NCBI GenBank assembly: GCA_020137815.1
Contig: CM035350.1
Span: forward strand, 1,798,001-1,862,000
DNA from: Hormiphora californensis
Taxonomy: Eukaryota > Animalia > Ctenophora
DNA length: 64,000 nucleotides
Direction of reading: 5' to 3'
The notes beneath the pieces are model-generated. The model saw only the letters and a list, made by a program, of their open reading frames with translations, was not told the DNA's origin and did not search any database. Shown here in pieces: positions 1 to 39,671 of this stretch; position 1 is the first letter of the stretch; the number at the start of each line of letters is the position of its first letter. The translations under genes were made by a program, and so were the position numbers.

Positions 1-3000
1 GAGAAACAGAGGATACAGCCCAGGATACCCATCGCTAAGTTCAAGGCTGACTCCATTAAAGTTATTGAGATGTGTCAGATTGCTGAGGCGTGGTTGTGTT
101 CCAGTGCGGGATTCCTTGAGGTAAATAGCTTAGATTGGAACAGTAGCGTTAGAAATTTACAAGTTGAAACATCTTGATTGTGATCTAATTCTAACCATGG
201 CAGATCCTAGCTGAAATGTTTAGCATAGAGAGACTGTTTCAACACTCCAATTATCTCCACAGGTCACAGAAGCAGCAGGGAAGATTATCGCTAAATCCCT
301 CAAGCTGGAGGTTGAATCTCGAACTCTAACGGAGCAAGACTTGACCGATTGGCTGGCCCAGACCCTTCCCATTGGAAAGAAGTTATACAAAAACAGACAC
401 ACAGACAAGAAAGAATCCCACGCTGAGCTTATCATGGATGAGGGTCTGGATATGAAGTTTGGAAGAGATATCCACAGTCTGACAGTCCGGCCTGTAGGGA
501 AGCTGAGGGATAAGTTCCCTGGTATTAATAAGAACTTTATCTACATTCCAAAACCTGTTTCTGTCGGGCAGACCGATGTAAGTAATATCGGGAGTTTAAT
601 GGCTACAGCCATGGGAAGTTCAAAGGCGTTGGGTTGATACTACACTCCCATCTCCCCACCCTCTAAGACTGACAGAGTTGGGCGATAAGAGTCTTAGTCT
701 TAGTCTTAGTCTAACTCCAACCCCCCCTCTAGTTGCGGTTTACCCTCAAGTTGGACCATTATGTTGGAGGGTGGGGATCTGAGGACCCCACTGAGACTAT
801 TGAAATCCTGAAACTTCACTGCCCCGATAACCACAAAGTTAACATCTTCTGCAACTTGGACCTGTTTGATTCAAAGCGGGTCTTCAAGATAGGGAACCTG
901 GTTACAGTGCCCCTAGAGGAAATAGAACAGTTCCATAGGCTGGTACACGAGGCATCCAAAGAGGTGAGCGTTAGGGGCGAGTTCTACCTGGCTATGTCTA
1001 ACTTCCTCCTCCTCCCTCCCAGATATCCCAGCTATGTCTAACCCCCTCCTCCTCCCTCCCAGATATCCCAGCTATGTCTAACCCCCTCCTCCTCCCTCCC
1101 AGATATCCCAGCTATGTCTAACCCCCTCCTCATCCCTCCCAGATATCCCAGCTATGTCTAACCCCCTCCTCCTCCCTCCCAGATATCCCAGCTATGTCTA
1201 ACCCCCTCCTCCTCCCTTCCATATATCCCAGCTATGTCTAACCCCCTCCTCCCTCCCAGATATCCCAGCTATGTCTAACCCCCTCCTCCTCCCTCCCAGA
1301 TATCCCAGTTATGTCTAACCCCCTCCTCCCTCCCAGATATCCCAGCTATGTCTAACCCCCTCTCCCCCTCCCAGATATCCCAGCTATGTCTAACTTCCTC
1401 CTCCTCCCTCCCAGATATCCCAGCTATGTCTAACCCCCTCCTCCTCCCTCCCAGATATCCCAGCTATGTCTAACCCCCTCCTCCTCCCTCCCAGATATCC
1501 CAGCTATGTCTAACCCCCTCCTCATCCCTCCCAGATATCCCAGCTATGTCTAACCCCCTCCTCCTCCCTCCCAGATATCCCAGCTATGTCTAACCCCCTC
1601 CTCCTCCCTCCCATATATCCCAGCTATGTCTAACCCCCTCCTCCCTCCCAGATATCCCAGCTATGTCTAACCCCCTCCTCCTCCCTCCCAGATATCCCAG
1701 TTATGGCTAACCCCCTCCTCCTCCCTCCCAGATATCCCAGCTATGTCTAACCCCCTCCTCCTCCCTCCACGATATCCCAGCTATGTCTAACCCCCCTCCT
1801 CCTCCCTCCCAGATATCCCAGCTATGTCTAACCCCCTCCTCCTCCCTCCCAGATATCCCAGCTATGTCTAACCCCCTCTCCCCCTCCCAGATATCCCAGC
1901 TATGTCTAACCCCCTCCTCCTCCCTCCTAGATATCCCAGCTATGTCTAACCCCCTCCTCCTAGCCTCCCTCCCAGATATCCCAGCTATGTCTAACTTCCT
2001 CCTCCTCCCTCCCAGATATCCCAGCTATGTCTAACCCCCTCCTCCTCCCTCCTAGATATCCCAGCTATGTCTAACCCCCTCCTCCTAGCCTCCCTCCCAG
2101 ATATCCCAGCTATGTCTAACTTCCTCCTCCTCCCTCCCAGATATCCCAGCTATGCCAGGAGGACCGTGTAAACGCGGAACACGTCCTCTGCAAGGCTATG
2201 GCCCTCAGTGGACCTCAGTTTGCTAACATCCAAGAGCGGTACCCTGACGAGCACTTTATGAGGGTTCAGGCGTACTTCTATCTGTGGAAGAACATGAGAC
2301 CAGAGGACCAGGATAATCTACAGGCACTCAATGAAACCCTCATCAAGGTATAATGATAGGGTTTTAGTTGGTCGATGTAAAGGAGGGTTAGAATATACCA
2401 AGGTTTTAGCAGCAGTAGACCGAGTAAAGATAATTCTTAGATCATAGTTTATGTTTAGAGTTTTTGGAATTCTGTGATAGCATTAAGCATAATTTGATTA
2501 GGACGAAATTTCCGAAATGAAAGTCAAAAGAACCCAAAAACAAATTACCAAGTAGCTGAGCAATTTCAAAAACTTTGCGAGTGACTCATAAATTCCTGAG
2601 TTTATCATTATCAATTATTAATTGAATTAAACATTTCCACACCCCATAAAAGGCTAGGCCGAGTTTGTGCTGTTGCACCTCCCCCGCGCAAAAATAAAAA
2701 ATAATAGTATGAACAATACAAGGCCGAGTCCCCTCTAACAACACCCCTCCCCTACCACAGGTCGGTATGAAGAAGCGTCCATGGCCGATGAGGGGCAAGC
2801 TGGGTGTACCTGATGTTACTGTAAGGACTGTCATTCCTGCACCACCTGAGAACATGATGTTTAGTATTGCTTACGACTACTTCAGCGGTAAGTGGATAGA
2901 TTGGAAGTTGGATCTGTAGGAGAGATCAACCAAATATATTGGAACATTCCCATGATGTATTTTAGAGACTAAAAAGGACTGCGTAAGGGATATAACCAAT

Positions 3001-6412: not shown

Positions 6413-8885
6413 TCAGGCACTGTAGATACTCTCAATGTCTATAACCTCATTATTTTCCAATACAGCTCCATCCCGTACCATTGTACACACAATGTTGGCA
6501 ATGTTTCTTGTGTCCGATATACCACTGTGGGGCGTCCTAGGGGAGGATGAGGGGGTTAGAATAGGCTTTATTTATTAGGGGAGGAGGGGGTTAGAATTAG
6601 CTTCATTGGGGAAGAGGGATTAATGCTGGGCCCTTCCCGAATCCCGGCTCCATATTCCCCTCCTTCCCAGCTGGGGGGAATATGGAGCCGGGATTCGGGT
6701 TACTGGGTTAGCCTATGGAAGAGGGGACCGGTAAATTAGATAGACTTACCCCTCAGCTTGTAGCCCCAGTGTTTTTAACATCAAGTCCAAATTTACTCTC
6801 TTCACTCCGTAGAAATTACAGAATTTCCGTCTCACATTGCAGAACTGCATACACATTTGGGGGAAGTCCATATTGTTATATCTGCATTCCTTCGCTAGGA
6901 ACTTCTTGAAATCCCATGGCCTGGGTAAAGGAGATGATGGTGATTTGTCGAGTTTAAATGAGGTTTAAACACACTTGCACTTTTTGGTTTCTTCAGTCTC
7001 AATTTGTTGGGCAAGTCCCTACACTTACCCGTCAGTTATGAAGCAGAGATTGGTTATTCGTTCATCTGATCCTTCCTCCTCATCCCCCTCCTCCCCAGGC
7101 GGGGCTCTCTTCTCGTCCAACCACCTCCCCAGATCTCCCCAGACACTCGTGAAATCTCTACTCTGATTTATCATAGTCTGAGGGAGAGTTTGGGTCGTGA
7201 TATTCTCAAATACCTATCAAAGAAACAATGTGAGACTGATAGACTGATCACAGATAGACAATAAAATTAAACGAATGAAACAGAAAAGGGGAAGGTACCT
7301 GGTTGATTCCGGTTAATTTCTTGCAAAACGGTGACAACTGAGGGCACATCTTGGGTTTAACATACTCGTGGAAGATATCAACCTGTAAGAGAAATAAGTA
7401 ACCAATCAGTTACACAGATACAGTAACAATGCAACTGTGTGTGACTCACTATTATGTGTGAAGAGCGATGTTTGGGTTTTTCAAGCGATCCAAAGGGAGA
7501 CTTTGCGCGGGGTCGTTCACAAGTCGTGCACCGCGCGCTACAAACAATGCAGACAGGGAGGGAGAGGAAGGAAACCAATCCTGGGGAAACAAAAACCACA
7601 CCGCATCACATACTGTCATGGATTGGTAATGAAATTCCCCCTCTGCGCTAGCTCACGGAGGGGTAATAATATCGCTTGTACGGCGGGAAAAAAATTCCTG
7701 TGTCCAAACTACAAAACAGAAAGTTCTAATTTTTTGAACATACCGAGGAAATTGTCTGAGCTACCATTACATACCGGAATTTTTCGATATTTTGGCCATT
7801 AACACTGTTTTTGTTTTTGGAAAACTATGAAGATGCTGGAATTTGGATACAAAAAGCTTCAGAAATGTGCAAAATGCCATTCCAAAGGTATTAGAGGTGG
7901 ATTCATTGATAACTAAGCTATAGTCGAGTCAGAAAAAATTCCACAAGATTGGAATTTTATGCCCATATAAGGAGTTATGCGACACACCTCTGTTGTTAAA
8001 CATGTGGTGTAATCGCTACCGGTCGTTACTTTCTGTAGAATTCAGGTCCTGGTTACTATACAAACTAGTACCATACGTTTTAGATAGGTTTTAGACAAGT
8101 TTTCGATAACTTTTTATGAGAAGGTCCCGTAAATTTTCATTTTTAGGTAGGCGGTATTGTCACCCCTATATGCAATAATAGGGGTGACTTCGTAACCAAT
8201 GTCATGGACTAGTTACAAATAAACCACCAGATAATAGTGATCTCTCTCTAGACACTTACAATTCTGGCAGTAGCGACCTCGATCAGAACCAGAGGAACCT
8301 CAATTATCTCGTGCATGTAATCCGTTCCAACAGCACTGCGAGAATTATTGTCATTGTCATTGTTAGAAACCAGAGGAATACCACGATATTCATTCATCCT
8401 AATTATCTTAATTAGGGTAAAAATACCTACTTTTCATCACATGTCGCTTCAAAATCAATGACAGCGTAGTGCGAGTAGGGGTTCTTCCGGTGCCAAATAA
8501 GAATGTGTGGATAACGGAGTGATTCTACTCTCCTGTAGTGCTCTTTTAGTCGCTTCTGGAGGACTTGTGGCGAACCCCTGCAAGGGAGATAGGGTTTAGT
8601 TGTGGCAGAAGCATTGATATAGTGGCCTCACAGAGCGGAGATTGTGGTCGCAGAACCAAACACAAGCGTGGTTGAGGAACTCATGGGCTTTGTTTTTTCT
8701 TCTCTTCCAAGTACTTGACTTAGGAGAGAAAATAGCACGCGAAATTCCTAACGGCCTAGGACCTACCTAGTATCAAGTCCCACACTATTTAACTCTTCCT
8801 TTAGTACAGCAGTAGATATAGTGTGGATGCGGCCGAACTCCTTAGTTAAATTGGATATCCTCTTACTATCCTCATAACTTGACAT
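6413..8885 (-). CDS. ERI1: 3'-5' exoribonuclease 1 (SAP + DEDDh domains), multi-exon
   Basis: Hand-spliced: MSSYEDSKRIS...LKEELNSVGLDTR|GSPQVLQKRLKEHY (SAP), YAVIDFEATCDE, HEIIEVPLV, FHEYVKP...LSPFCKKLTGINQ, FITDG|PWDFKKFL, PHSGISDTRNIA. These are the ERI1 exonuclease motifs. TGA at 6413-6415. Absent from the ORF track because the exons are short. Confidence 0.92.
6636..6699. repeat. Near-perfect hairpin in the last ERI1 intron
   Basis: cccgaatcccggctccatattcccc ... ggggaatatggagccgggattcggg (25-bp arms). Confidence 0.85.
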
Positions 8886-9479: not shown

Positions 9480-10317
9480 CTACTCAATAAAGGTGCAAAT
9501 CTCGTCGAGTGGTTTACGTCCAAAGTCAGGGACAGTAGCCTTGTCAGAGGGATAACCAATGGGCAGCAGGTAGGCCAACTTCTCGTGATCGGGACGATTC
9601 AATAACCTGAGATGTGTAGAAAGGGGTGGATTCTCTCTTTTAGTTAAAATAACGATCTCACCGCAAGAGTAAGACCTTCTGTTTTCCATAAATCCCATTC
9701 AGTAAGGTCTCGTCACTACAATAAACTAAACCTGCTAGGTGGTCTACACTCTACATACCTCCGTAAGGCAGGCCCGCAGTTCATGGGAGTACTGGTAACT
9801 GTAACAAGTCCAACATTGTTTAGTGCACAGAGCAGGATACCAACAGCAATGGAAACAGACGCCTGGGGGTTGTAGTAGGAGTTGGAGAAGGAAATGCAGT
9901 GGAAATATACAGTAGCAGTGGAAATGGTAGTCGCAGCTAGAAACAATAGTAATGCAGTGGAAATGGAAATGGAAACAGTATGAAATTCTAACTTGAGTAT
10001 TCGAACATCTCTGTGAAGAATGAGATGTCTCCTATGCTGTTATGTCGCATTATGGGCGTGGTGACAACTGACAAAGGATCGAGCTAAGAAATATCTATCT
10101 CACCTCGTAGTACCAGTGGTTATGTCTCTATCTCACCTCGTAGTACCAGTGGTTATGTCTCTATCTCACCTCGTAGTACCAGTGGTTATGTCTCTATCTC
10201 ACCTCGTAGTACCAGTGGTTATGTCCCCATACACAAAAGTCGTGGAGTTTCGGGCGTGAACTCCAAGTCAAATTCATGAGTTAGAATAGGGAAAAAGTCG
10301 AACTAAAAACGAGGGAA

Positions 10318-10411
<94 letters not shown>

Positions 10412-11433
10412 CTCTAAGCAGTAAGTGCTTGCGTATCATGGCCCATGTCAGCGCCTTGCCTTGTAAACATATTATGGCCCTTGTCAGCGCCTTGCCTTGT
10501 ATACATATCATGGCCCTTGTCAGGCCTTGCCTTGTAAACATATCATGGCCCTTGTCAGGCCTTGCCTTGTAAACATATCATGGCCCTTGTCAGCGCCTTG
10601 CCTTGTAAACATATCATGGCCCTTGTCAGCGCCTTGCCTTGTAAACATATCATGTCCCTTGTCAGCGCCTTGCCTTGTAAACATATCATGGCCCTTGTCA
10701 GCGCCTTGCATTGTAAACATATCATGGCCCTTGTCAGGCCTTGCATTGTATACATATCATGGCCCTTGTCAGGCCTTGCCTTGTAAACATATCATGGCCC
10801 TTGTCAGCGCCTTGCCTTGTAAACATATCATGTCCCTTGTCAGCGCCTTGCCTTGTAAACATATCATGGCCCTTGTCAGCGCCTTGCATTGTAAACATAT
10901 CATGGCCCTTGTCAGGCCTTGCATTGTAAACGTATCATGGCCCTTGTCAGCGCCTTGCATTGTAAACGTATCATGGCCCTTGTCAGGCCTTGCATTGTAA
11001 ACGTATCATGGCCCTTGTCAGGCCTTGCATTGTAAACATATCATGGCCCTTGTCAGCGCCTTGCATTGTAAACGTATCATGGCCCTTGTCAGCGCTAGTA
11101 ACTTGTCAAATGAGACCTGAGAGAGAAGCATGCATTTGAATGGTGAAAAGACACTCCAGGCGGCTCCATGATCTCCCCCTACCCCCTTTATAATGTACGT
11201 GACGTCACCAGTATTTAGACTCCATATAAAATGACTCTCACTCTTCCGACTCCATACTTGTTGATTCTGACTCCAACTCGCGCGGCTTTACAAGTCGCGC
11301 GCGATTTATACTCTCTTGAATTGTAAAAGTAGTATCTCTTCCATGGTGCAACGGTTAGCAGCTCCGACTCTGAAGCAGGCGACCCGTGTCCAATTCCCGC
11401 AAAACTCATAACAAACTAATGAATTTTTTTTAA

Positions 11434-11483
<50 letters not shown>

Positions 11484-13853
11484 CAAGGCGCTGACAAGGG
11501 CCATGATACGTTTACAACGTGAGGCGCTGACAAGGGCCATGATAGGTTTACAAGTCATATTTCTCCTAAAAATTTGGACTCCAAGTCCACTCTCAGACTT
11601 TTGGGTTAGGGGTTATGTCTCTATCTCACCTCGTAGTACCAGTGGTTATGTCTCTATCTCACCTCGTAGTACCAGTGGTTATGTCTCTATCTCACCTCGT
11701 AGTACCAGTGGTTATGTCTCTATCTCACCTCGTAATACCAGTGGTTATGTCTCTATCTCACCTCGTAGTACCAGTGGTTATGTCTCTATCTCACCTCGTA
11801 GTACCAGTGGTTATGTCTCTATCTCACCTCATAGTACCAGTGGTTATGTCTCTATCTCACCTCGTAGTACCAGTGGCTATGTCTCTATCTCACCTCGTAG
11901 TACCAGTGGTTATGTCTCTATCTTACCTCGTAGTACCAGTGGTTATGTCTCTATCTCACCTCGTAATACCAGTGGTTATGTCTCTATCTCACCTCGTAGT
12001 ACCAGTGGTTATGTCTCTATCTCACCTCGTAGTACCAGTGGTTATGTCTCTATCTCACCTCGTAATACCAGTGGTTATGTCTCTATCTCACCTCGTAGTA
12101 CCAGTGGTTATGTCTCTATCTCACCTCGTAGTACCAGTGGTTATGTCTCTATCTCACCTCGTAGTACCAGTGGTTATGTCTCTATCTCACCTCGTAATAC
12201 CAGTGGTTATGTCTCTATCTCACCTCGTAGTACCAGTGGTTATGTCTCTATCTCACCTCGTAGTACCAGTGGTTATGTCTCTATCTCACCTCGTAATACC
12301 AGTGGTTATGTCTCTATCTCACCTCGTAGTACCAGTGGTTATGTCTCTATCTCACCTCGTAGTACCAGTGGTTATGTCTCTATCTCACCTCATAGTACCA
12401 GTGGTTATGTCTCTATCTCACCTCGTAGTACCAGTGGCTATGTCTCTATCTCACCTCGTAGTACCAGTGGTTATGTCTCTATCTTACCTCGTAGTACCAG
12501 TGGTTATGTCTCTATCTCACCTCGTAATACCAGTGGTTATGTCTCTATCTCACCTCGTAGTACCAGTGGTTATGTCTCTATCTCACCTCGTAGTACCAGT
12601 GGTTATGTCTCTATCTCACCTCGTAATACCAGTGGTTATGTCTCTATCTCACCTCGTAGTACCAGTGGTTATGTCTCTATCTCACCTCGTAGTACCAGTG
12701 GTTATGTCTCTATCTCACCTCGTAGTACCAGTGGTTATGTCTCTATCTCACCTCGTAATACCAGTGGTTATGTCTCTATCTCACCTCGTAGTACCAGTGG
12801 TTATGTCTCTATCTTACCTCGTAGTACCAGTGGTTATGTCTCACACCCTTGTCATCATCATGGTATGGAACTTTAAAGACCAGGATAATAGCGGGGGCCT
12901 CTGTGATGTACTCCTTGACAAATGTAGTCTTGATTGTCTGCAAATCACCCAACCACTTCTTACCCATTCTCCGCTCGTAGTTAACCTGTAGTAAATATGA
13001 AATAGTTAAGTATGTAGTCGAGATAAATCACTTCCATCATTATCACAACGGTCAAGGAAGTCGAGTTCCTATGAATTCAGTCATTAAACTATTACTGTTA
13101 CACCATTATAACTCACCCTCTCCTCATCCTCTACTAGAGACCTGATAACCTCTCTGTCCTCCTTATTGTACACCACTACAAACCTCCACGGTTCAGTGTG
13201 TGCCCCACTAGGACTAGTCCCCGCTGCCAGGACACACTGCTCAATCACCTTCCTCTCTACCGGGTCAGAGGAGAAGAACCGGCAGGATCTCCGCTGGTTT
13301 ACCAGCTTGTAGAAGTCACGTGATCTTTGGAGCATGGTGGCGGGGTCGTACCGGGGTAGAGAGAAGGGGATGTGAGTGGAATCCTCCTCAATCTAGAAGG
13401 AGAAGACAGGTTAGGGAGAACAAGGGGCAAAGGTCAAAGAAGATACTGGAATATTTCGTGAGGTAGTTTTTTATACAGCTTAGTATCTAAGGCAGAGTAA
13501 AGCCTGCAATTCAACGAGAAAAGACTCACGGAAGGGATGTATTTCTCGTAGAAGTAGTTTCCATCACTTTCCTCCACAACATTCTTATCAGCAAACAAAC
13601 CACCATCCGGTGCCTCCTCCTCCTGCTTCCCCTTAGCCCCGCCACTCTCCTGAGATACAGATTCCAGTTGTATAATATAGTCAGTCTGATAGACTTGTGT
13701 GTCCCCCTAGTCAGTCTGATCCCCCCTGCTTGAAATAGTACATTGAGGAAAGTGAAAACATCTACACCTCAAGTAAATGGATCAACGCTTCTACACACAT
13801 ATCAACATCACATAATTAGCATACTGCTGCATATGCACACGCTTTCCCAGTTT

Positions 13854-14317: not shown

Positions 14318-17300
14318 CTAAATGTGTCCATGTGAGGTTTGATCGAGAGCGGAGCACTTTTTGATCAGTTTGTTGTATCCCCTGATCTTTCTCCTTCTTC
14401 CGCCTGTCACGTGAGGTCGAGCCCTGTGTGAGGAGAAAGAGAGTTAACGTGACAATGAAACAAAACACACTCTGATTCTCTTTCACTATTATCTCTTTCT
14501 ATCTCTCCCTTTCTACCTCTCTCCCTCTCTCCCTATCTCTCTCTGATTTCTACCTCTTTCCCTCTCTCCCTATCTCTCTCTGATTTCTTCTTTTTTGTTC
14601 TACCTCTCCCTCTTTCTTTCTCGGATACAAATCTCTCGTGTACATAATTTCCCTACGACAGCTGTAACATATTAGGGGTTATGGAACGCTTTTCATACAC
14701 ACACAATACACCACCTCTGACCAGGACCTTACATATTCACATAAAGATGATACATCCCATGATCTAGCTACAATATTCACATATCGGTACTTCTCTCAAT
14801 TACTATTGTTCTATCTTATTACCCAAATCTATATCCTAATTTTACCTTTTCGGGGGAGGTTCATCTGTCACACCATCACCATCACCCTGTTGTTGTTGTT
14901 CCCTACCAGCTGCAGTAGACGTGGTATCCGTCTCTACTGATACCGGAACTGTATCACTCTAACGGAGGGGATGTGAGGAGTGTATGGGAGTGGGGAGTGT
15001 GTGTGTTTATAGAGTGAGTAGGATGGAAGTGTGTGGGAGATGAAAAACATATCGTGGTATCTGCCGTAGAAACACACCACAGCTCAGAGATCACAAAACA
15101 CAATATCCAGTTTTAACCTAATTGCAAACTAATTACTAATTAATATAATTAATTAATTACCGTTGCACAGAGATCCTGTTTAATTGCCCTCATCTGTTGT
15201 TTCTGTATACTCTTGTAGAGGGTCTTCAGTTCCAACCACCGTGTCTTGGGGAACACCCTGATATCCTGTAGTTCACACTTCTTCTTCTCCTTGATCTTCT
15301 TCTTCTTCCTTCTCTTCGCCTTCACAATCTTCAACTGCTTTCTCAGCTCTGTGTCGGATACTACTACAGCAGCAGTAGTAGGTGTAGTAGCATGTGTAGT
15401 AGATGTGGAGTCGATGAGCGGACCAGACAAGCTGAGAACACGTTTAACCTAGAAGTTGAGTTTGTTAGTTAATGAGTTAGTTAGTTAGTTAATTAATTAT
15501 TTGGCAGATACGTAGCTACGCACGCGAGAGGATGGAGTAATTTGAGACAGAGAGGATTTGCCAACTTCATTTTCAAAGTCAATACACACGAAATGGAACA
15601 AAAGCAGCGACTGTGCAAAGTTGTGAATCAGCTACTCATCATGATTATTGAAAGACAGAGGCCGATCAAAGAAAGAAGTCTTTACATGGCCCCTTTAGAT
15701 ACACACGTGTCACGACCCGTCTCCCTCTATCACTATTATTATGACACACTCCAACATCCCAAGCAGAACCCCCCTAGTCTAGTATCACCGGTGTTCCGAG
15801 CCCCTGTGAGACTAAGAACTTCCGATGCCCCTTGTTTCCCCCCGATTCCCTCACGTACCTTCTTATCAGTGATGGGGGACTCTGTTTCAAAGCTAGTTCT
15901 CTTCCTCTTCCTGGCAGAGTGAGATCCAACAAGGCCGTGATGCAGTTCCGTAGGAGTTGTTACTGCTGCTGGTCCGGTGGGGGATATCAATAGTAGGGGA
16001 TCCCTGGGAGGGGTGATAAATATTAGCTTCTCCGTTAGTTAATGTAACAAACTCTCGTTTGCTCTTTCTCTAGTAAATGTAACACACGCTCTTTCGGCTG
16101 TAGGGTAGCTCAGCTTTCTAATATTCGAACAAATATGGAATATAGAAACTAGAAAAGACACCGAATACCGGCAGTATGTTACATGTCCCAATCTCACTCC
16201 ATTATTATTATATGGACATGATCATAAAGTCGGGACACTTTTGAAATTTCAAAGTTTAAAAATATCGACCAAATTTTTTAAAACTAATAATTATGGTACT
16301 TTTATTCATCCAAACAACTCAAAAATTTGGGAGCAGATAAAAATATGAACAAAGTACAATATTTGATAATAAAAAATACGATTACTCAACCGAAGTGGAT
16401 CTCAGGACAACATTTGTAAATATTAAAATACAGAACCACAGTTACCACCATTTTAGTTTTAGTCCAACGGGTATTATAGATAATCGTCATGACTAGCTTA
16501 TTAGGGTTGGTTGAGTTGTTAATTACTCAACCTATGTGGATCTGGAGACACTTGAACTTTGGGAAGCGAAAAAGGGTCTATAGAATTCTCATAGACAAGT
16601 AATTCAGGGCTTATCTTTTTGGAAAATGTCTAAAGTTTCCATATTTGGCAAAGGTGGAAGAATAGGACGACTCAACCGGTGTGGATCACCGTTTTAAAAC
16701 CTCACTTTGAAAACTTTTCAGCTAAAAATGGAATTTTAATCACTTGTATTGGTGGCAATGGCTACTAGACCTTTTTACAACTCAAATAGAAAACTCATTC
16801 CATGTGGATCAATTTTTTTCTGAGAAATTTCACTTTTGATCCACAATGGTTGAGTCAGAATCTATTATTCCGCTCCACATTATGTTTTGGTATGTAGTTC
16901 CCAGATAGTACACACTGTTTTGATGCATAGATTTCCCATATGATCCACAAATATTGCCTAGAAGTTAGACTGCTAAGAATGGTTTATTATATACTGACTT
17001 CGAGCAACGGTTACAAAAGTGATGATCCACAAGAGTTGAGTCATTGCTTGACAAAAATTTGGATATAGTCTAATGTCGGATCGATTTACGAAACTTTTGA
17101 GAATAATCGGGACCCGAAACTTCGTCATAAACTTCCGGTTGAGTCGCATTTTATGAGAAAATTGAAAAAAATCCACATTGGTTGAGCATACTTTGTATAT
17201 TTACCCATGCCAATCAATTTGTTACTATACCATCTATCATCCCACAAAGTTTCAAGGACGTACCATTAACCTAACTCGGTTGAGTATGCTGATCCACACG

Positions 17301-19056
17301 TTTCTGATCCACATACTTTAAAGCCTTATAAAACAAAGCATAATTAAGCTTTAAAATTCTAGTTTTCACAATTTTTATCTAGTGACAATTTTTGGTGGAT
17401 CAGATTACTCAGCCAGGTGAAAAAACCAAATTTAAAACTCAAAATCCACATTTTTTTAAACATTGTAAAAGTGTCCCGACTTTATGATCATGACCATAAT
17501 GAAGTAGTCGAGTCATGAAACATAATCCATGTTCCACTGCATATTAAAAATTCACACGAAGCGGGATCCCAGGAATATACCTGTTTTGACTCTTCAGATC
17601 TGCCAGACATACAGAAGATCTACGCCTTCTTCTCTTCTTCTTCGCTTCATCTTTAGCCTCTTTTGTCAGCTCCGTCTCAGAACAAACATCTGAAAATCCT
17701 TGTTAGTGGCAGGAGATAGGTATCTAACACAACTGAACAAGTTAATTGATTAATTAATTACCTGGTGTTCCACTAGACAGTTCAGGAGTATCAGTGTTTG
17801 GTGTTACAGAGTCAGATCTTGAGAAACTGAGACTTCTTGGAGGACTTCGAAATGGTTTTAACTCTGGTTTCGCTTCCTTCCAACCCAATCCCTAGTTTGG
17901 AGAAGGCTTACTTAGACTCAAGAGGTAACTTATATCAATTATTCATCGTATTACTGTATGTGTTAGTGTACAAGTGATCTGATTTAATACCTTTAGAGCA
18001 GCGCTGGCCTCCTGAACTGTCCTGAACTCAACAAAAGCGAACCCTTTTAGCTCTTTGTTGTTTTTAAATCTTGGCAGAGAGATCTTCATGGCCTGTCCAT
18101 ATTTCCTGAGGGCTTGCTCTAGTCGCTTGTGGTCCATTTTAGTAGGTAGGTTCTCCTGAAACGGGTGGTTTTGGTAAAGACAATATATAAAATAGGCGCA
18201 ATCATACTCTCCAGCAGAAGTAAATCTAGGTACAAAATACCGCCGAAACTGAGAGCTGATACAAGTGAACAATCACAAGTCACAACTAAAGAACTTACAA
18301 TGTAGATAGACCGATTGTCAGCATTGTAAAGAGGATTAACTGTAGTGGTTCTCCTCACACTCTCCCTATCGGGGCTCAACTCTAGCTCCGGGAGGAAGGA
18401 TATACTCTTGACGAGGAGATCCCTGCCACAATTCAACTCAATCATCCGACCAAACTGCTCTATAGTAGAAAGAGGAACATCTGGAGAGGGAGAGAGTGAC
18501 AGACATTACATCTGGAGAGGGAGAGAGTGACAGACATTACATCTGGAGAGGGAGAGAGTGACAGACATTACATCTGGAGAGGGAGAGAGTGACAGGCATT
18601 ACATCTGGAGAGGGAGAGAGTGGCAGACATTACATCTGGAGAGGGAGAGAGTGACAGACATTACATCTGGAGAGGGAGAGTGATATATCAATAAGAGTGA
18701 CAATAAGAGTCACATATTATAACAGTTAGACACGTCCTTCAAACAAGCTGTTGCGACATACGTTGGTCCATATGGCTATAAATTAGATTATTTGTAATCT
18801 AGTACTTACAACCATCTGGATTAGCTTTCATGAGTTTTAACATGTGCTTGTCCGATAACAGATTACTATCACTAAAGTAGAAGGAAACCTGGAATAGAAC
18901 TTCATCATTGCTGATCAAATAAAGTAAGAATCATTTCATTTGAGTAGTGTTTTAGTAGGTGTTTACCTGCTTTTTAATTTCGTTGATGATGTGCTTTTTT
19001 CGTTTCCTTTTTCCCGTTCGATTAAACTGAAGTCCATACCTCACAAAGTTGGTCAT
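14318..19056 (-). CDS. LARP7: La-related protein 7 (La motif + RRM1), multi-exon
   Basis: MTNFVRYGLQFNRTGKRKRKKHIINEIKKQ|VSFYFSDSNLLSDKHML...DG|YVPLSTIEQFGRM (La motif), RSIYI|ENLP...KGFAFVEF (RRM), IRVFPKTRWLELKTLYKSIQKQQM, and C-terminal RKIRGYNKLIKK, matching LARP7 conserved blocks. Confidence 0.88.
16213..17496. mobile_element. Non-autonomous TIR DNA transposon in a LARP7 intron
   Basis: 30-bp TIRs tggacatgatcataaagtcgggacactttt / aaaagtgtcccgactttatgatcatgacca, flanked by TA. Many internal gatccac and actcaacc motifs. Confidence 0.85.
18477..18683 (-). repeat. 31-bp minisatellite (7 acceptors); unit = LARP7 polypyrimidine tract + CAG + first 4 exon nt
   Basis: Minus-strand unit aatgtctgtcactctctccctctccag|atgt. 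Confidence 0.95.
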
Positions 19057-19612
19057 TGCCTATCAGGTGTTGTCGTTTGTTAGTCAATGTAATAATGTTA
19101 AGTCAGACAGTATTTCATGATGAAATTTGAAATCTGGGATCTGCTAGCTTTTTTGGATTGCAATATTTACGCTACAGTGGCTTCAAACCAAGGTTCGCTT
19201 ATAAACCTGTCCTCCACGTTCTTTTAAATGTCTCAAAAATCGGGAAAAGGATGTGCACCTTTACAATTTGGGTGCGTGCTTCCAAAAAAGTTGATTCAAT
19301 AAAATGGCTCTAACTGCCAAACCACTCAACCGTTTTGGATAACTCAAAGTTTATCTGGTAGGAAATGTCAAGGGACAAGGCCTAACCCCAACCCAAACCT
19401 TTACTCTTTAGCAATTAGCCCTAACCCTAAAAACCGTTTGTCAGCACTCACCAAACACCCAGATTTTAACGCTGGCCGAAAAGGATAGGCAAACGCTGCT
19501 GGGATAACTGATAAGGCAGCGTTTTTCAAGAAAAGGGAGGTACACAGCTCGTGTTTTGCAATTTTGGTCAAAAAGGTTTTCGGAAAACCAGCTAAATTTT
19601 TAGGCGCCAATA

Positions 19613-19994: not shown

Positions 19995-19995
19995 T

Positions 19996-20358: not shown

Positions 20359-20581
20359 AGGGATCCCTAATAAAGTTGTGACTTGTCACCAAACATGTGG
20401 TTCCCGTGGCGGCGCGGCTTCAAAATGCGCGATTGTAACTTGTCACCGCATGGTTTGCGCCGCGCCGCAGCTACGCGCAGTGGGAACCACGTGCGTTTTG
20501 GTACGCGCACACGCGGTGACAAGTTACAACCGCGCCTCCGCAAGACTACAGTGACAAGTCACAACTTTATTAGGGATCCCT
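20359..20581. mobile_element. Hairpin MITE
   Basis: 31-bp TIR agggatccctaataaagttgtgacttgtcac / gtgacaagtcacaactttattagggatccct. Confidence 0.85.
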
Positions 20582-20910
20582 CTGGGCTCTGGCCGCTGGC
20601 GGTCGAGTCTCGAGAGTGAGACGGATTCGGGATTAGACCTTAGAGCTGTCCGTTATCGTCTGATTAGGGCTATGTTTGGGCTTATCGGTTAGCGCTATCC
20701 GTTATCTGTCCAATACCGTTTATTCAAACTGGCCATGTGATCGCTAAACTCGCGGGTTGTGAAACTTTGGTTGGCAAATGACTTCCTACCGCTGGGATCT
20801 GAACTGCAGTAGCTCAGCGTGCAGAAGCCTGCAGTATAATGCAACCAGGCTGTCTAAATTTATGATTAAAAGTTTATTAAATAACCCGCTTTGTTGTCAA
20901 AGTTGCCAAA

Positions 20911-21216
20911 ATGTCAGTTAAAGATGGTCACTCATTTTGCAAGCTGAAAGATTTGCCATCGCGAGCACCTGGTGACACAATCTCTACACTAGGATACGTT
21001 ACATTCTTTGACCCTACCACCGGACTTGTTAAGTTATCATTTGAAAACAGTACAGTCAAAGTGAACACCAAAATGTTAGACCCACAAAACTACACGCCCG
21101 GGTCTCTTTTCTTCTGTCTAGGATATGTCGAGAAGGATAGGACACTGTTGGCAAAGATCCTCCGTGCAAGTAATGAGCTGAATATCGAGAAGTTCCTGAG
21201 TATAACTGGACAATGA
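20911..21216 (+). CDS. TEN1: CST complex subunit TEN1 (single OB fold), intronless, 101 aa
   Basis: GDTISTLGYVTFFD...VKVNTKMLDP...GSLFFCLGYVE...LLAKILR...LNIEKF parallels TEN1 as I recall it (GSTLRTFGRL...VLVCTKLVEP...GSLYIVLGEL...VKARVL...MNLPLL). Confidence 0.8.
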   Translation: MSVKDGHSFCKLKDLPSRAPGDTISTLGYVTFFDPTTGLVKLSFENSTVKVNTKMLDPQNYTPGSLFFCLGYVEKDRTLLAKILRASNELNIEKFLSITGQ

Positions 21217-22374
21217 GTAATGTCACAACGTTACTCTACCAACGGTCATTTTCTTTGTTTGATCCATCTTTTACACATACGGTCCGATCCAACCTCACCC
21301 TTTCCTTCGACCTGACCGGTAATACGGAGCTGCAACTAAAATCTCAACACCCATCGTACTGTCTTGACATTGATAAAACTGGGGAGTTTCTCCTGTCAGG
21401 TGATAATGGCGGTGGGGTCTCAATACATGAAGTACACAAGATCGAGCCGTCAACAAACAATATTCTCCCACCTGTGAGCCATAAACGGCAACTTCACAAA
21501 TTTGCCATAACTTCTGTTTCGTGGTATCCACTGGACACTGGGGTCTTTGTGACCGGATCCACGGATAAACAACTCAAGATATGTGACACTAACGCTATGA
21601 CAAGTGTTGATAACATCAAGCTGAAGGGTCATGTTTATGATATAAGCATGTCTAAACGGACGACAGGGAAAACAACTAATTTAGTAGCTGCAGCGTGTTC
21701 AGACAATAGAGTCATGGTATGTGATCTGAGGTCTGGGTCAGCTACCCATACACTCCGGGGTCACGAACAGGCAGTTAACTGTGTCACCTGGTCTCACAGG
21801 AACTCATACACATTATTGTCAGGGGGACGGGATGGTAAGATAATTACATGGGATATCAGACGTGCTAGGTCAGCTGTGAGTTACCTAGACCAAGATAACA
21901 GAGGACAATGAAGAGAAGGCCCATAATGGAGCGGTAACCAGTATCACACAAACCCAGGACGGCTTCCTGCTCCTCTCTACCGGCCAGGACAGGATGGTGC
22001 GGTGCTGGGATATAGCTGAGGGTAGCAATACATACACCAACTTTGGAGCTGATTGCTCCTCGGTGAGCTGTTAAGAAGATTCAGAGTGCAGTGAGTGTGA
22101 ACTCGTGTTACCCTGGCCTGGTGTATGTCCCAAATGGGGGCGAGATCAGGGTTTATGATGTGTTGACCGGGCAGAATCTGGCAGACTATAAGGTCCATTT
22201 TAATGGGGTGAATGCAGTTCAGTACAACTGGCACTACCCGGCACTGTACACATGTTCTAATGATGGGGCCATGAGGGTCCTGGAGCCAGTTAGAGAGGAT
22301 CAAACCGGGCCAATTAGCAGTGACAATACGGGAGAAATGAAATGCCAGGGGATACATGGAGTGATTCAGATTGA
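21213..22374 (+). CDS. ERCC8: DNA excision repair protein ERCC-8/CSA (WD40), intronless, with 4 apparent +1 insertions
   Basis: HKFAITSVSWYPLDTGVFVTGSTDKQLKICDTN, DLRSGSATHTLRGH, WDIRRA...LDQ. Continues in shifted frames as AHNGAVT, GLVYVPNG, and ends GDTWSDSD*. Removing 4 bases gives 385 aa. Confidence 0.9.
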
Positions 22375-22587
22375 AATATCATTAAATGTACTTTGTACTA
22401 AGGGGGCCATCAGTTTCATATTAATATTACATTATGTTTGTATCATGATTATGTTTGTGTCTTGAACCGTTGAGACATTATATTGAGCAAATAAACACTC
22501 AATTTCTCTATTTAGAACTCTGTGCCCACTGCCCACGTCCCCTCAATACTTGTTCATTATGTCAATATAATGTTCTCTCTCTAGACA

Positions 22588-28874
<6,287 letters not shown>

Positions 28875-30915: not shown

Positions 30916-32255
30916 GGGGGGGGGGGGGGGGCCCGCGTGAATTTAATATCCATGTCCTAAATAAACACGTCCGACTTTAATGTCCCTGGGACATTAAAGG
31001 ACATTAAAAGACATTAAAAGACATTAAAAGACATTTAATTAAAACATGAATTTTCAGCTATTATTAAACTAAAATGGCGTTTTCAACCACTTAATATTTA
31101 CTCCTAATGTCCCCTCTATCGATTCCAACCAATACCATAGATGTTGGGGGTGATTACGCATCATTTTAGGGTGGCCCGGTACCTCGAAGCGAACCCCGGA
31201 AATTTTGAAGTTTTGGACTAAATTTCAAGGTTTTCAAGTGAAAATAGCCCCGATTTTGATGAAACTCAGTCAGAATGGTCTTTGGTGTCTAATTAGAAGT
31301 CAAAAAATTTTTAAATGCTCAAATCCTAAATTTAGGTTTTTCTAGGATTTTTAGGTTTTTTTGCTTTTATGGGTTTCAGGAACGTCCTAGAACAAAATAA
31401 ACAGAACCATCTTTCTCGGCGTGAAATTCTGCATCGATTATAGTGGCTATAAACCTTTCTATGACGTAAGGTAAAAACCTTTGGTTAAAACATGTGGTAA
31501 GGTTTTTTAGGTTTTATTCGTTACACAGACATCGCAGATCAAAATGGTTTTCACTAAAATGATTTACGTATCATCAATACACGTCGATTGAGTACCTATA
31601 ACATGGTTTTCTGACAAGAGGTTCGCCCGGTAGCCTAAAACATGTACCCGCCCCTATAACATGTACCCGTTTGGGATTTTTTGGGATAACTTCTTAACCT
31701 TACGCCATAGAAAGGTTTATAGCCACAATAATCGATGCAGAATTTCATGCCGAGAAAGTTGGTTTTATTCATTTTGTTCTAGGACGTTCTTGAAACCCAT
31801 AAACGCCAAAAAACCTAAAAAACCTATATATCGTAAATTTTGGGTTTGAGCACTAAAACTTTTTTGACTTCTAATTAGACACCAAACACTATTTTGACAA
31901 AATCGGGGCTATTCTCTACTCGTTTCATAAGATGATTTTGAGATATCGTCTAGGCTAGAATTATGCACATGTAAAAGAGGCACCGCACCCACAGCCCACA
32001 CAAAAGCAAGCCTAATCACCACTGAAAACTAATGAACATTCATTGGAATCGAAAAATGGGACCTTTAGTAGTACATTGGTGGTAGATATGTTTGGTAACA
32101 CATTTTGAAATGGCTTTTGGAAGTTATAATTTAATGTCTTTTAATGTCTTTAAATGTCCTTTAATGTCTTTTAATGTCCCAAATTACCCCGGACAATTTA
32201 ATGTCCCAAAAATCGAGGGACATTAAAGGACATTTTAATACGCGGGCCCCCCCCC
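30916..32255. mobile_element. Non-autonomous DNA transposon with G/C-run termini (Mutator- or Merlin-like)
   Basis: Termini (G)n-cccgcgt / acgcggg-(C)n. Target duplication ggtaaatc (8 bp, extendable to 9-10). Subterminal gacattaaa repeats. Internal inverted arms at ~31280-31475 and ~31695-31890. Confidence 0.85.
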
Positions 32256-32916
32256 GGTAAATCTCAAAATAAAATAATCCCGATTTACAAGATTTGTGCG
32301 AAATTGAAAATCTTAAGAGAGATTTATATTACAGAACGAACTTAGAAAAATATAACAATATCCCTTTTAATATCGGAGTCAGAGAAATTAAAAAGATAGG
32401 GTCAACATCACGATTATTATTTCCATCACAAGATCAGTTCGCATTTCCTCAATAAAATCTCACAATCTCTTTATCTGTCTGTCTCCCTCTCTATATCTGT
32501 CTGTCTCACTCCCTATATATCTGTCTGTCTCACTCTCTATATTTGTCTGTCTTGTTCTCTTTCTCCGTTCCCATCTCTGTCTGATTCTCTCATCGTCTTG
32601 CTCACTTTGACTCCCACAATCTCTGTATGTCTCCCTCTCTTTGACTGAGTCTACCCCTTTCCGATGATTTTGATCAACATTATGCCGCTAAAATTACGGA
32701 GAATAAAGAGGAGGAGGTCATCCGATTAATCAGATTGGGCAAATATATTATTTCTAGCGGTTACCACGGACTGTTTACCCTTCACTTCCAAAGTCTTCTA
32801 TAGTCTTCTCTCCTCTAGCTCCCTTCTCTATCTCTATCTCACTCTCTCTCTCGCTCTCTCTCCGTCATCGTGAACCCGGTGCCGGAGTAGATAGAGAAAG
32901 AAAGGGAGAGGGAGGA

Positions 32917-32970
<54 letters not shown>

Positions 32971-33837: not shown

Positions 33838-36123
33838 ATGATAGTATTATACGGGGCTCTGATTGCCCTGGTTTTCCTTGGCCAACCAGGTAACTCATTA
33901 TTCCATATATGGCATAACCACCAGATGGTTACCATGGTTACTGATTATCATAGTTACCCTGTACTTTCCAAGGTGAGACAAGGGACGCAGCGTGTGAGGC
34001 AAGATCAAGGAGGGGCCTCCCACCCGGTACACAATTCAAGATCGAGGCTAGTTGTCAGATATGTGCGTGTGATGGAGCTAATCGGTTATTCTGCACCTCA
34101 GACTCCCAATGTAAGTTCAACTTGTTTAGTAACAGGCCAGCAAAGTCCAACTAGTGTGGGTGGTAAACAGTGCTCCATCAAACTGATCCTGATATCCAGG
34201 AAGTCCTAACTCTGATATTCCTGTAGGTAAGGATCGAAAGGAGGAAGAGTACAATTCGAGGCACAGAAGACCCTGTATGATGGATGGCAGTGTGTTCAAA
34301 GACCTGGCTAAAGTCCAGAGGGACTGTAACATTTGCACCTGTAGGAATGAGACCTGGGTTTGTACTGAGGAGCAGTGTGATAACGGTCGAGGGAGGACTC
34401 CAACCAACACAGGTTTACAAGCAAAACGTCATGTAGTGACCGGGTTTACTTGGGGTTTTTTTTTGTCGTAGTTGATACGAGGTTAATACCCCACAATTTC
34501 ATTCCCAACAATAAACCCATGATCGTTTCAGGATCAAACGAGAGAGAAAGGACAAGACAAGATGAGAGAGCAAGGAACCCCGAAAGGACAAGACAAGAAG
34601 AGAGAGCAAGGAACCCCGAAAGGACAAGACAAGAAGAGAGAGCAAGGAACCCTGAGAGGACAAGACAAGATGAGAGAGAAAGGAACCCTGAAAGGACAAG
34701 ACAAGAAGAGAGAGAAAGGAGTCAGGAGAAGACCAGACAAGATACAGATCAGAGTACCAACAGGGGGTCTACATCAGAAGATCAGCGGGGAGACAGGACA
34801 TCTTCAAACAGCAGAAAACAACACAACACCCACCGAAAACACCAACCAGCAGCCGCAAAGAAGTGTGTGGACACAGATAACAGGTGTTCTGGAATCATAT
34901 CACGACGGGGTCAGGACATCTGCAACACCAACCCAGTAGTACTGAAGAGATGCCCAGAATCATGTGGGAAGTGTGAGTGTAGTGATTCAGATGACAGGTG
35001 TGGGGATTGGATTAGAAGGAAGGGGCAGGGTGTGTGCACCACTAGTAGGTATGTGGGGAGAATGTGTGACCAGAGTTGTGGGAAGTGCCAGCCTGAAGAA
35101 GAGGAGGAAGTGGTGTGTGAAGACCTGGATGCTAACTGTGCTGTGTGGGCTAAACGGGTGAATATCTGTAAGAGATACAAGTATATGGAGAAGAAGTGTC
35201 AGTTGTCCTGTGGATTCTGTACCCCTCCCCCTGGGCAGGAGGAAGAGGAGGAGGAGGAGGAGGAGAGGACTATTGAAGAGGAGGAAGAGGAGGAGCAGGA
35301 GGAAGAGAATAGGACTGATATGGAGAAGAGTTATATAGAGGAGTGGAAGGCTGATTTGGTTGCAAAAGGTCTACTTGGGGATACCCACAAACCTAATGGT
35401 AGGTAAAGCAGCCTGGTAGATGTTGGTAACATGCCAAAATTAGTGATCATCATGACAGTCATGAGTGCTATCTTGCCAACATTTTTCCAACACCTTCTTT
35501 GCCCCATCAATGTCCAACCTGCCAACTTCTTTTCCATCCTCTAATAATCTCTGGAAGTTTCTTTCCACTCACGTGTGCCAGTGCTACTTGCTAGCCGGAC
35601 ATTTCCCTTGTTGTCACCCCTTCCTCAATAAGATTCCCAAGACCTTCCTCTTTTCTTCCACCTTGCAGAACTAAACTTGGTTAGTTAGCCACTACCCTGT
35701 CCCTGTTACCAGACAATATCTAACCGCGCTCTCTCTCATGTAGACCCCCCTAGACCATACCGCTCTCTCTCATGTAGACCCCCTCTAGACCACAGAACAT
35801 CGTGTTGGAGACAATCCAAGCCACAGCTGATATTAAACCGCCATTGACCATTCTCATTTAAATTACTTCGTGTCATTCATAGCTTCTTCTATCCATCTCA
35901 GCCAATTTCTCTATCCCACCACCTAACCGCCCTAAAATAACTCCACGCCCCCTCCCTAGGTTGCCAGTTCCGATGTGGGGGCCGTGTTTACCCGTGGGGA
36001 TCCCAATTCCAAGGTGACTGTGGACTATGCACGTGCAGACTGAGAAATGGGACCCTCAACGACTACTACTTCTTGTGTTCTAGCCCCACGTGTGGGGAGA
36101 TCGCTCTTAACTGTGAGGGTTAG
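33838..36123 (+). CDS. Secreted protein: signal peptide, VWC/pacifastin-like Cys modules, 12-aa E/R repeats, three ShKT domains, poly-E, terminal VWC-like module
   Basis: Exons at about 33838-33889, 33973-34110, 34227-34412, 34532-35398 and 35960-36123, all joined in phase 1. Motifs CQICACDG..LFCT, DCNICTCRNETWVCTEEQC, CxDxxxxC...CPESCGKC (three copies), GDCGLCTC. Confidence 0.8.
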
Positions 36124-36360: not shown

Positions 36361-39300
36361 CTACGCGACACAAATACCTAAACAGCTGCCTTGTTTCTCC
36401 ATGTTACTCGGCACCAAATCCATCGCAATCATCACCGCCTTATCGAATATCACCTTGATGTTTTTCTGCGTCACCGCTGACGTCTCAAAGTAATGGCATC
36501 CGAGATCGTATGCTAGCTGGAGCCCTGAAAAATGTTAAATCTTAGAATTTTAAATTGACATCTGGTTAAAGGCAGCTGGTAGGGTTTAGAAGAGGGATAG
36601 CGACTTTGCAGCTTGCCTTTACCACTAGTCGAGCTCTATACCAAGTCGACGCGGGTGATCAAGTTTGTCGCCCAAATAATATTTCAGCGCCAATTTCATT
36701 AAAACTTTGGTGTCGGGGTTCCTTATTTCAAAGGAATATTATTCGTTATCAGTTGGTCGTTAGTCGTTATGGTACCCTGAGTTCTAGAATCCCCCCATTA
36801 CTGAAGAACTTTTAAATTAAATTCAGCTGGGAAACTTGCCAGGATAGTTCATGGGCTTATGCAAAAATTACCAGAGCAGATAATCTCGAAGGAGGGAGAT
36901 TGATAAGGGTAAGGGAGAGAACTGAGCCGGGACGAGATTGTCTGGTCCGGTTACAGTTTCATTATGGATAACTTCAGGGGTAACTTCATGGTAGGGATCA
37001 TGAGACTCTGCTCATTTATCTGTGATCTCTACCTCAACTTCATGGTAGGGATCATGAATAAATGGGCAGAGTTAATCCGAATAACCGGCTGAACATTGAA
37101 TCGCCTGACACTATCATGTTCCGCGCTACATATGAAAAGCGGGGATATGAATTATGAACCGGCAGAATTGTAGCAAGCAGAATAATAAGCAGGAAACCCT
37201 AAGTAGCCGGATTGTTTGTAGGTTACAGTGAGTAGCCATCACTTTCTGTATAACCCTTATTAGAGCAAGCTATCACAGTCTAGTGATGATCCTAGAGGGA
37301 CGGGTAACACTTGCCCTGAAACCTCAATAACTAAACGTGTGAAGCCGAGCACGCGATAGGTTAAGTAAGTAGTTGGGAGATTAGTTAGAATAGAAAAACA
37401 GTGGGAACGCTATATATTTTCCAACTCCATGGAGTTGGAAAATATAGAGCGTTCCCACTGTTTTTCTGTTCTAACTAATCCCCTGCAACTACTTATCTAT
37501 CCTATATCATACTGAAAAAGAAGAGCAGAGCTCGAACCTATTAAAACATGGCTTGGCCTGGGCCATCCCATCCTGGCGGTAGAATTTTACTCAGAGACCC
37601 AATTGCTAAATGTGAAATGTGATCACACATACCTTGTTCAGTTTTGACATGGCTCATGGAGGTGGGGTCCCTATTATCAACTTGACATCCAACAATTATT
37701 AAAGGGGGTACATCACTTCTTCGTATCCTTCTAATCTCATTCACCCAGAACTGAAAAACAGGGGGTCAGGATTTCACCATTATATAATAAACGGGGGGGG
37801 GGGGGGGGGGCTGTTTTGGTCTGTCACCAGATCGAAATAACAGCTAAAGCAGAATGTCATGCATCGCCTGATCACTGTTATTAGGTCGTTGGGTGGTCAG
37901 AGGAACAGCCCCAAGTGAGCCAAGAACGGACATGGCAGTCAGCCAGTTATTGTACTGGACAGGGGTGCAATGTTTAGCCGTGGCACCACCCACAAGTTTG
38001 TGCAGTATTGCACCCTGTGTACCCAAAATAAACAAAAGGAAGGTGTGACGGTGTGGTCGAGTGAATACTAAACGCGTGTTATACGCAATGAACCAGATCA
38101 CCATAACTATAATCTCAGATCCATTCCGAACCAGCCACACCACACTTCAAGGGGGAGGGGGGAAGGGGTCTGTCTGGCGCCGCCGACCCCATCTGAGCGC
38201 ACTGTCGCTTTGAGAATCAAATGGGGTATGGCGCCGCCATATAGGGAAGGGTCAAGTCACTTACCCGCTCCACGTGGTGGAAAGATGCTGCATCTGAAAT
38301 GTTGAAGCAGACAATGAAAATATGGGCTTTACTGTAGAGCTGGTGCCGAACATTGGTCGTGTGTTTTGCCTGGGAAATAGGAAGATCAGGGAGTTAGATT
38401 AGGTCATATGTCCAACAATTAGAAGGGATAAAAAGAAGTATGTAATAGGTTTTAGCAGCGTTAGCCAAGAGTAGAGAAGACTGTCTGGAGTCGCCAGACC
38501 CCGTTTTGTGCGCTCAGTGCGCTCAGATAGGGTCGGCGCATCCAGAAAGAGAGAAGATGGGTTTCCCTCCTTGCTAACATACACACAGTACCAACCTGTG
38601 AGCCCCCGGTATCGTGTATAGTGACGTCTATCTGTTCCACTAACCTGTGAGCCCCCGGTATCGTGTATAGTGACGTCTATCTGTTCCACTAACCTGTGAG
38701 CCCCCGGTATCGTGTATAGTGACGTCTATCTGTTCCACTAACCTGTGAGCCCCCGGTATCGTGTATAGTGACGTCTATCTGTTCCACTAACCTGTGAGCC
38801 CCCGGTATCGTGTATAGTGACGTCTATCTGTTCCACTAACCTGTGAGCCCCCGGTATCGTGTATAGTGACGTCTATCTGTTCCACTAACCTGTGAGCCCC
38901 CGGTATCGTGTATAGTGACGTCTATCTGTTCCACTAACCTGTGAGCCCCCGGTATCGTGTATAGTGACGTCTATCTGTTCCACTAACCTGTGAGCCCCCG
39001 GTATCGTGTATAGTGACGTCTATCTGTTCCACTAACCTGTGAGCCCCCGGTATCGTGTATAGTGACGTCTATCTGTTCCACTAACCTGTGAGCCCCCGGT
39101 ATCGTGTATAGTGACGTCTATCTGTTCCACTAACCTGTGAGCCCCCGGTATCGTGTATAGTGACGTCTATCTGTTCCACTAACCTGTGAGCCCCCGGTAT
39201 CGTGTATAGTGACGTCTATCTGTTCCACTAACCTGTGAGCCCCCAGTATCGTGTATAGTGACGTCTATCTGTTCCACTAACCTGTGAGCCCCCAGTATCG

Positions 39301-39671
39301 TGTATAGTGACGTCTATCTGTTCCACTAACCTGTGAGCCCCCGGTATCGTGTATAGTGACGTCTATCTGTTCCACTAACCTGTGAGCCCCCGGTATCGTG
39401 TATAGTGACGTCTATCTGTTCCTTGTTGATAACAAGGGATGTGACGTAGGAGTAGGCCACTGTAGCCTCGTAATCTTCCGTGTAACTACCTGGGGGAGGG
39501 GGAGTTAGGAGAAGTAGTTATGATCGGAAATGAAGGGAGAGGGGACCTCAACATGTGAGTCTCTATCACATTTCATGCTGGATGTATTGTGGTACCTGTT
39601 CCATAAGCGTCTATAAGGGCAGTTTTCCCAACTTTACTGTCCCCCACTACCACCAAATGCAGTCCACTCAT
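36361..39671 (-). CDS. Atypical Rho-family small GTPase, 5 coding exons
   Basis: MSGLHLVVVGDSKVGKTALIDAYGT|GSYTEDYEATVAYSY...TIHDTGGSQ|AKHTTNVRHQLYSKAHIFIVCFNI...|FWVNEIRR...PPLIIVGCQVDNR...|GLQLAYDLGCHYFETSAVTQKNIKVIFDKA...SCLGICVA*. Confidence 0.85.
37355..37505. repeat. Loopless palindrome of about 150 bp in a Rho intron
   Basis: Centred on ttttccaactccatggagttggaaaa, with arms aaaaacagtgggaacgct / agcgttcccactgttttt. Confidence 0.9.
38593..39422 (-). repeat. 49-bp minisatellite (17 donors); unit = 3' end of Rho exon 2 + GT donor
   Basis: Minus-strand unit gaacagatagacgtcactatacacgataccgggggctcacag|gttagtg encodes EQIDVTIHDTGGSQ followed by the donor. Confidence 0.97.

Follow-up and report, generated by a model that had tools for sequence, protein, structure and literature searches.

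Genes and repeat arrays in the window

The window analysed here is a 64,000-nt stretch of the genome of the ctenophore Hormiphora californensis (assembly GCA_020137815.1, contig CM035350.1), in which we modelled by hand nine intron-containing genes with 50 introns, the median intron length being 196 nt; some UTR introns may be missing from these models. Eight of the nine gene models are open across their introns. The ninth, with two predicted introns, is a long minus-strand CABIN-like reading frame; this frame seems to be interrupted around 51250-51650, where the base pattern is odd, possibly as a result of local sequencing errors. Four tandem arrays, with units of 40, 33, 31 and 49 bp that are unrelated to one another in sequence, occupy introns of four host genes in 7 to 41 copies, and a fifth gene carries a duplication of two copies (Table 1).

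The names that the initial annotation attached to the host genes stand to different degrees. Pfam supports those of IYD (Nitroreductase), LARP7 (La and RRM) and Kelch, and the Rho exon has a weak match to the Ras family (E 0.004). The label "death-domain gene" for the host of array 1 is unproven, as a Pfam search with this gene gave no match: FADD was found at E 0.23 and ranked behind unrelated proteins, and the atlas matches were Myb-like and all under 0.9. One homologue search returned 22 candidates, none of them significant and none a full-length relative, and another gave three matches, of which two were short fragments and the third a long protein that matched weakly. The sole match of the IYD exon is a Bolinopsis microptera protein with 75% identity, and EukProt model sb/3463465, which we take to be a Pleurobrachia model, matches LARP7 exon 3 with 100% identity.

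Several features of the gene neighbourhood were noted in passing. An ERI1-like exonuclease gene begins about 600 bp past the IYD stop, the two genes occupying 6750-8885 and 9480-13650 of the window on the minus strand, and a Bolinopsis model (P0001) merges these neighbours into one protein with Nitroreductase, SAP and RNase_T domains; IYD and the ERI1-like gene are conserved neighbours, and the model may reflect either a shared precursor transcript or an annotation in which two genes were merged. On the plus strand at 20850-22375 there are two short adjacent frames; by eye, the second resembles WD40 and seems to be broken near 21900 and 22380. Other sequencing runs have one-base deletions at 21902, 22379 and 22398 in this region, where the window may hold sequence errors or a broken allele.

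Table 1. Positions of the junction-spanning repeats and of the element-like DNA associated with them (window coordinates)
Feature	Position	Strand	Description
Array 1, acceptor	991..2154	+	40-bp unit, 29 units; putative real acceptor end 2140, donor 964
IYD donor array, distal part	10094..10225	-	4 units of 33 bp; 41 donors together with the proximal part
Insertion within IYD array	10226..11611		1386 bp; imperfect inverted ends 17/25; 8-bp target duplication
IYD donor array, proximal part	11611..12842	-	37 units of 33 bp; putative real donor 12817
LARP7 acceptor array	18477..18680	-	31-bp unit, 7 acceptors; putative real one 18481
Kelch donor duplication	26757..26828 and 26896..26967	+	72-bp copies; exon end and donor 26820, second donor 26959
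Kelch spacer	26829..26895	+	67-bp internal fragment of a ~100-bp palindromic MITE-like repeat, also in L001-L004
Rho/Ras-like donor array	38593..39422	-	49-bp unit, 17 donors, 99% identical; putative real donor 39379

Anatomy of the junction-spanning arrays

In all four arrays the repeated unit spans one splice site together with the adjoining exon edge of the host gene, as determined by Tandem Repeats Finder, splitting of the arrays into units, and exon joins. The coordinates, periods and copy numbers of the four arrays found with Tandem Repeats Finder match those first reported. Each unit of array 1 repeats a branch-point-like CTAAC, a pyrimidine tract, the AG and the start of the exon. The splice signal is kept in 26 of the 29 units of array 1 (AG) and in every unit of the IYD (41/41), LARP7 (7/7) and Rho-like (17/17) arrays. 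An AG/GT lies inside the repeated unit in IYD and Rho and is missing from array 1, LARP7 and Kelch. The order of unit variants along the IYD array includes a 17-unit block that is present in duplicate. Both ends of the 40-bp unit of array 1 share a 6-nt match; inspection of the Rho unit by eye revealed no terminal microhomology. Spliced cDNA was considered as a template for the units and is ruled out, because each unit consists of contiguous exon and intron DNA and not of exon joined to exon. Kelch had been described as a two-copy version of the same arrangement; two donor copies are indeed present, but they are not in head-to-tail contact, and the duplication is better seen as a spaced version that encloses a 67-bp spacer.

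Mobile-element-like sequences in IYD and Kelch

The insertion that splits the IYD array into 37 and 4 units, to which the initial annotation did not refer, is, on its sequence features, likely a non-autonomous DNA transposon, and it carries a 36-bp minisatellite of its own at 10434-11095. It also contains an (AG)n run and, at 11486-11553, an inverted two-copy piece of the 36-bp minisatellite. Further elements with inverted ends, MITE-like by eye, were seen at 16170-17510 (in a LARP7 intron), 30925-32260 and 42660-43430.

A 31-nt piece of the Kelch spacer matched four metagenome loci (L001-L004), whose alignment defines a repeat of about 100 bp with inverted ends; the spacer corresponds to an internal part of this repeat. 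The spacer pattern was found at no locus in viral contigs and at none in prokaryote genomes. An ordinary cut-and-paste MITE insertion fails as an account of the spacer, which lacks inverted ends of the L001 type and is flanked by the 72-bp copies. At L004, a fragment of the spacer type lies between two 30-bp copies (93% identical) of a pyrimidine tract, an AG and the bases that follow, which together resemble an acceptor with a putative exon, and looser 26-bp copies (81%) enclose a second fragment. The other three of the four metagenome loci have no flanking duplications. Taken together, the Kelch and L004 sequences hint at duplication at junctions with captured filler DNA. Fuller palindromic copies occur at 1700-1815 of L001, 1020-1115 of L002 and 110-240 of L003, where they adjoin acceptor-like sites or directly follow stop codons of other genes.

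These observations raise the question of whether mobile elements seeded the arrays, with breaks caused by the palindromic MITE-like repeat, or repair from it, duplicating splice-site flanks that later expanded. The Kelch copies enclose an element fragment whose ends show short homology, which would fit such an origin, as would the enclosed L004 fragments and the full L001 copy that abuts an acceptor-like site. We regard it as quite unlikely: the palindromic element is present in none of the four large arrays, L004 is the single metagenome locus with flanking duplications and its exon is putative, and both the fragment ends and the duplication lengths vary in a manner unlike ordinary cut-and-paste insertion.

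Support from other sequencing runs

The initial annotation had called for the arrays to be checked in other samples, and contigs from three samples support the LARP7 array, with a variable copy number. Contigs of run X1 stop at 18506 and resume at 18651, 30 nt into the array from either side, as happens when k-mer assembly meets a multi-copy tandem repeat; at fixed positions close to the array, X1 also has other letters than the window and is therefore not simply the haplotype of the window. A 203-nt contig of run X5 enters the far flank after three acceptors. For a related organism (organism B; runs X7 and X11, from two studies), 18496 is joined to 18683 by 31 other letters, such that there is one full acceptor and, exactly 31 nt away, a second copy of 9 nt of the junction motif, without an array; given its length, this copy seems likelier to be a decayed old duplication than a chance homology. 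The locus is unstable in length, with seven acceptors in the window, three in X5 and one plus the seed in X7 and X11, and the seed, three copies and seven copies may be read as stages of one array.

For IYD, the bin at the array edge that holds three units has a depth of 1038 in run X2, as compared to 67-103 in the next three bins, and a depth of 75, without excess, in run X7; contig depth is not a copy number, and this support is qualitative. In run X5 the depth at IYD showed no clear signal, and run X11 covered the LARP7 flanks. Short-read contigs back two of the arrays, LARP7 clearly and IYD by depth only. An artefact of assembly or sequencing might be suspected from the 99% identity of the Rho units, and the comparison with reads covered LARP7 and IYD; such an artefact is nonetheless extremely improbable as an explanation of the arrays, given the contigs at LARP7, the depth at IYD, and the diagnostic unit variants and higher-order structure within the arrays. 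Between LARP7 and the next gene, at 19081-20664, there is a very high-copy repeat with nested palindromes, for which the depth exceeds 100,000 in X2 and X5.

Splice-site choice and reading frame

Translation across the exon joins gives an open frame through the junction in each of the five cases when the exon-proximal site is used, and an earlier stop whenever another site is used (25/25 sites in array 1, 40/40 in IYD, 6/6 in LARP7, 16/16 in Rho and 1/1 in Kelch), which bears out the earlier claim that the other sites add a stop or a frameshift. The alternative Kelch join was computed at 26958, one base off 26959, and since the stop lies directly behind the first donor this offset leaves the result unchanged. 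The Bolinopsis homologue P0001 runs uninterrupted over the proximal IYD join (WYYEASVS). We considered P0002 as transcript evidence for LARP7 and set it aside; it is 100% identical to LARP7 exon 3, yet apparently represents a predicted model that has an additional segment where the junction lies. The RNA-labelled run X13 yielded six short repeat pieces only and is uninformative for these genes.

By analogy with human F7, for which exon-proximal choice by scanning has been demonstrated (PMC1557585), the spliceosome would take the site next to the exon and skip the copies in the array, and leakage to decoy sites would be removed by nonsense-mediated decay. The stepwise splicing that had been suggested is geometrically possible in IYD and Rho, where the unit contains AG/GT, but not in the other three of the five cases. 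The farthest decoy of array 1 would define an intron of 59 nt, comparable in length to the shortest ones present in the window, and pure intron definition should therefore choose the wrong site; site use in array 1 would thus discriminate between exon and intron definition in ctenophores, the shift to exon definition having been placed at the bilaterians (PMC6142364).

The premature stop behind every decoy also invites the view that the arrays are functional, either tuning expression through decoy leakage and decay or, in the case of donor arrays, being removed stepwise by means of the AG/GT in the IYD and Rho units, and the length of a VNTR in human ABCA7 does affect splicing (PMC5954066). 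We hold a function of this kind to be very unlikely. The units are unrelated to one another, the LARP7 array is missing in a relative and variable within species, three of the 29 array-1 acceptors have been lost, the IYD array has a transposon-like element inserted in it, and three of the five cases have no AG/GT. The arrays are likely to be a harmless side effect of duplication at the DNA level.

Relationship to known repeats at splice junctions

Judged by their sequence anatomy, and in so far as the available parts of the published descriptions extend, the arrays in the window belong to a class that is already described, namely the "mirages" of amphioxus (lancelet) and the human VNTRs of the F7 and ABCA7 type. 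Amphioxus mirages are reported for Adh3, the globin genes BflGb6 and BflGb9, troponin C and PGBD5 (PMC3087553, PMC3902484), with units that range from 10 to 160 bp, a range that includes the 31-49 bp of the window units, and with an origin stated as unclear (PMC3087553). They are like the ctenophore arrays in anatomy, in the involvement of both boundary types, in their retained splice signals and in their length variation (PMC3087553, PMC3902484). As far as the accessible text of these reports goes, the ctenophore case differs in its short introns, in the presence of four arrays and one duplication within 40 kb, in copy numbers of up to 41, and in a duplication that encloses a fragment of a mobile element. 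Regular splicing is reported for amphioxus mirages (PMC3087553) and would be predicted for the ctenophore arrays.

The human examples are donor-side VNTRs, and include those of F7 IVS7 (37 bp), 6-16, CBS, LMNB2 and PDGF (PMC1557585) and the 25-bp repeat of ABCA7 (PMC5954066). In the F7 type the donor is spanned by the first unit, the units behind it carry identical pseudo-sites, and splicing normally proceeds from the most upstream site (PMC1557585); in ABCA7, one retained unit leads to a premature stop (PMC5954066). These are described, in the portions of those papers available, as single donor-side loci in a large genome, whereas two of the ctenophore arrays are on the acceptor side, one of them with a branch-point-like motif in every unit. 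The arrays also recall the AG/GT intron-gain model of Rogers, in that the stretch between copies in IYD and Rho is formally spliceable with the exon end unchanged (PMC3087553, PMC2812944). They depart from the model as outlined there, in that the copies sit at the edge of an existing intron and lengthen it, and the other three cases have no AG/GT.

The literature that we searched, which covered few subscription papers, contained no ctenophore mirage, and the available part of PMC10078293 contained nothing on junction-spanning units. What is new here is the ctenophore lineage, the density of the arrays, the series of stages at LARP7 and the duplications filled with element sequence. The ctenophore case carries mirages to a very early branch of the animals, and junction arrays of this kind can mislead both gene prediction and short-read assembly.

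Enrichment at junctions and origin of the arrays

The initial annotation had proposed a test for enrichment of junction-spanning units over random placement, which we carried out within the window only. Arrays were collapsed to one copy, and a unit of 31-49 bp was placed on tolerated positions relative to 100 junctions, with a resulting probability of spanning a junction of 0.08-0.13 when the whole of the non-coding DNA was considered and of 0.17-0.25 when placement was confined to genes. Among non-coding arrays with units of at least 30 bp and at least five copies, four of six span a junction (P 0.0005-0.0033), as do four of the five that are genic (P 0.004-0.016). For all complex local duplications the counts are 5/13 (P 0.003-0.019) and, within genes, 5/11 (P 0.03-0.12). 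Excluded from the counts were microsatellites, subrepeats of 10 bp located at transposon-like ends, an AG-rich repeat of 16 bp, a degenerate repeat that lies within a high-copy element, and two repeats in coding sequence. The window and the thresholds for length and copy number were picked post hoc, and all of these P values are nominal.

The excess suggests a junction bias without proving one. Of the junction-associated duplication process that the initial annotation had in mind, the local excess remains (4/6 as opposed to an expected 8-13%), but its products fall into a described class and do not call for a new process specific to this genome. The competing explanation offered at the time, survivor bias, accounts for the tolerance of these arrays as compared to exonic ones, but not for their excess over purely intronic arrays; the latter should be at least equally tolerable, and survivor bias alone therefore predicts no junction excess. 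The true competitor of junction bias is a chance cluster selected from many windows. There would then be no preference for junctions, and a repeat-rich genome with short introns would make junction-spanning units fairly common. The null is already high for each array inside genes, where introns are short, P values of 0.004-0.016 are expected in some windows of any whole genome, the thresholds were set with the data already seen, the genic count for all duplications is weaker, and one published ctenophore genome, possibly of another species, consists of 13% tandem repeats (PMC8527503). Against this, all eight variants of the null for the larger arrays give P of at most 0.016, and the sole intronic array of that size away from a junction lies inside the transposon-like insertion. 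On balance, we consider a chance cluster rather unlikely.

We favour, with a probability of roughly two in three, the reading that the arrays are mirage minisatellites, that is, arrays that likely began as local duplications, likely grew by slippage or unequal exchange and are likely skipped in favour of the exon-proximal site. Birth of an array would involve a template switch or slip at short homology, such as the 6-nt match at the ends of the 40-bp unit or the 9-nt LARP7 seed one unit length upstream in the relative, and might sometimes capture foreign DNA, Kelch being an example; growth would proceed by unequal exchange, to judge by the block of 17 units that occurs twice in IYD. Junctions may in addition be preferred to a modest but real extent, with conserved exons probably anchoring pairing beside introns rich in indels. 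The published ctenophore genome mentioned above has a heterozygosity of 3.2% and raised indel rates in introns (PMC8527503), and by analogy with these figures an exon-anchored exchange bias is plausible.

It is more tentative, and on present evidence doubtful, that ctenophores in general have genome-wide junction-biased duplication, seeded in part by palindromic elements, in which the proximal site is still chosen among up to 40 identical decoys. If this were true, exon-anchored selection of splice sites would predate the bilaterians and work in a short-intron genome, and polymorphic arrays would serve as its natural reporters.

Two junction-adjacent arrays were kept out of the junction-spanning tally. 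One, at 24639-25252, is a degenerate minisatellite with a 12-bp unit, which begins 5 nt past a Kelch donor at 24634, the donor itself not being copied; the other, at 34546-34720, is an in-frame 36-bp coding repeat with about five copies, 14 nt past an acceptor in a ShK-domain gene.
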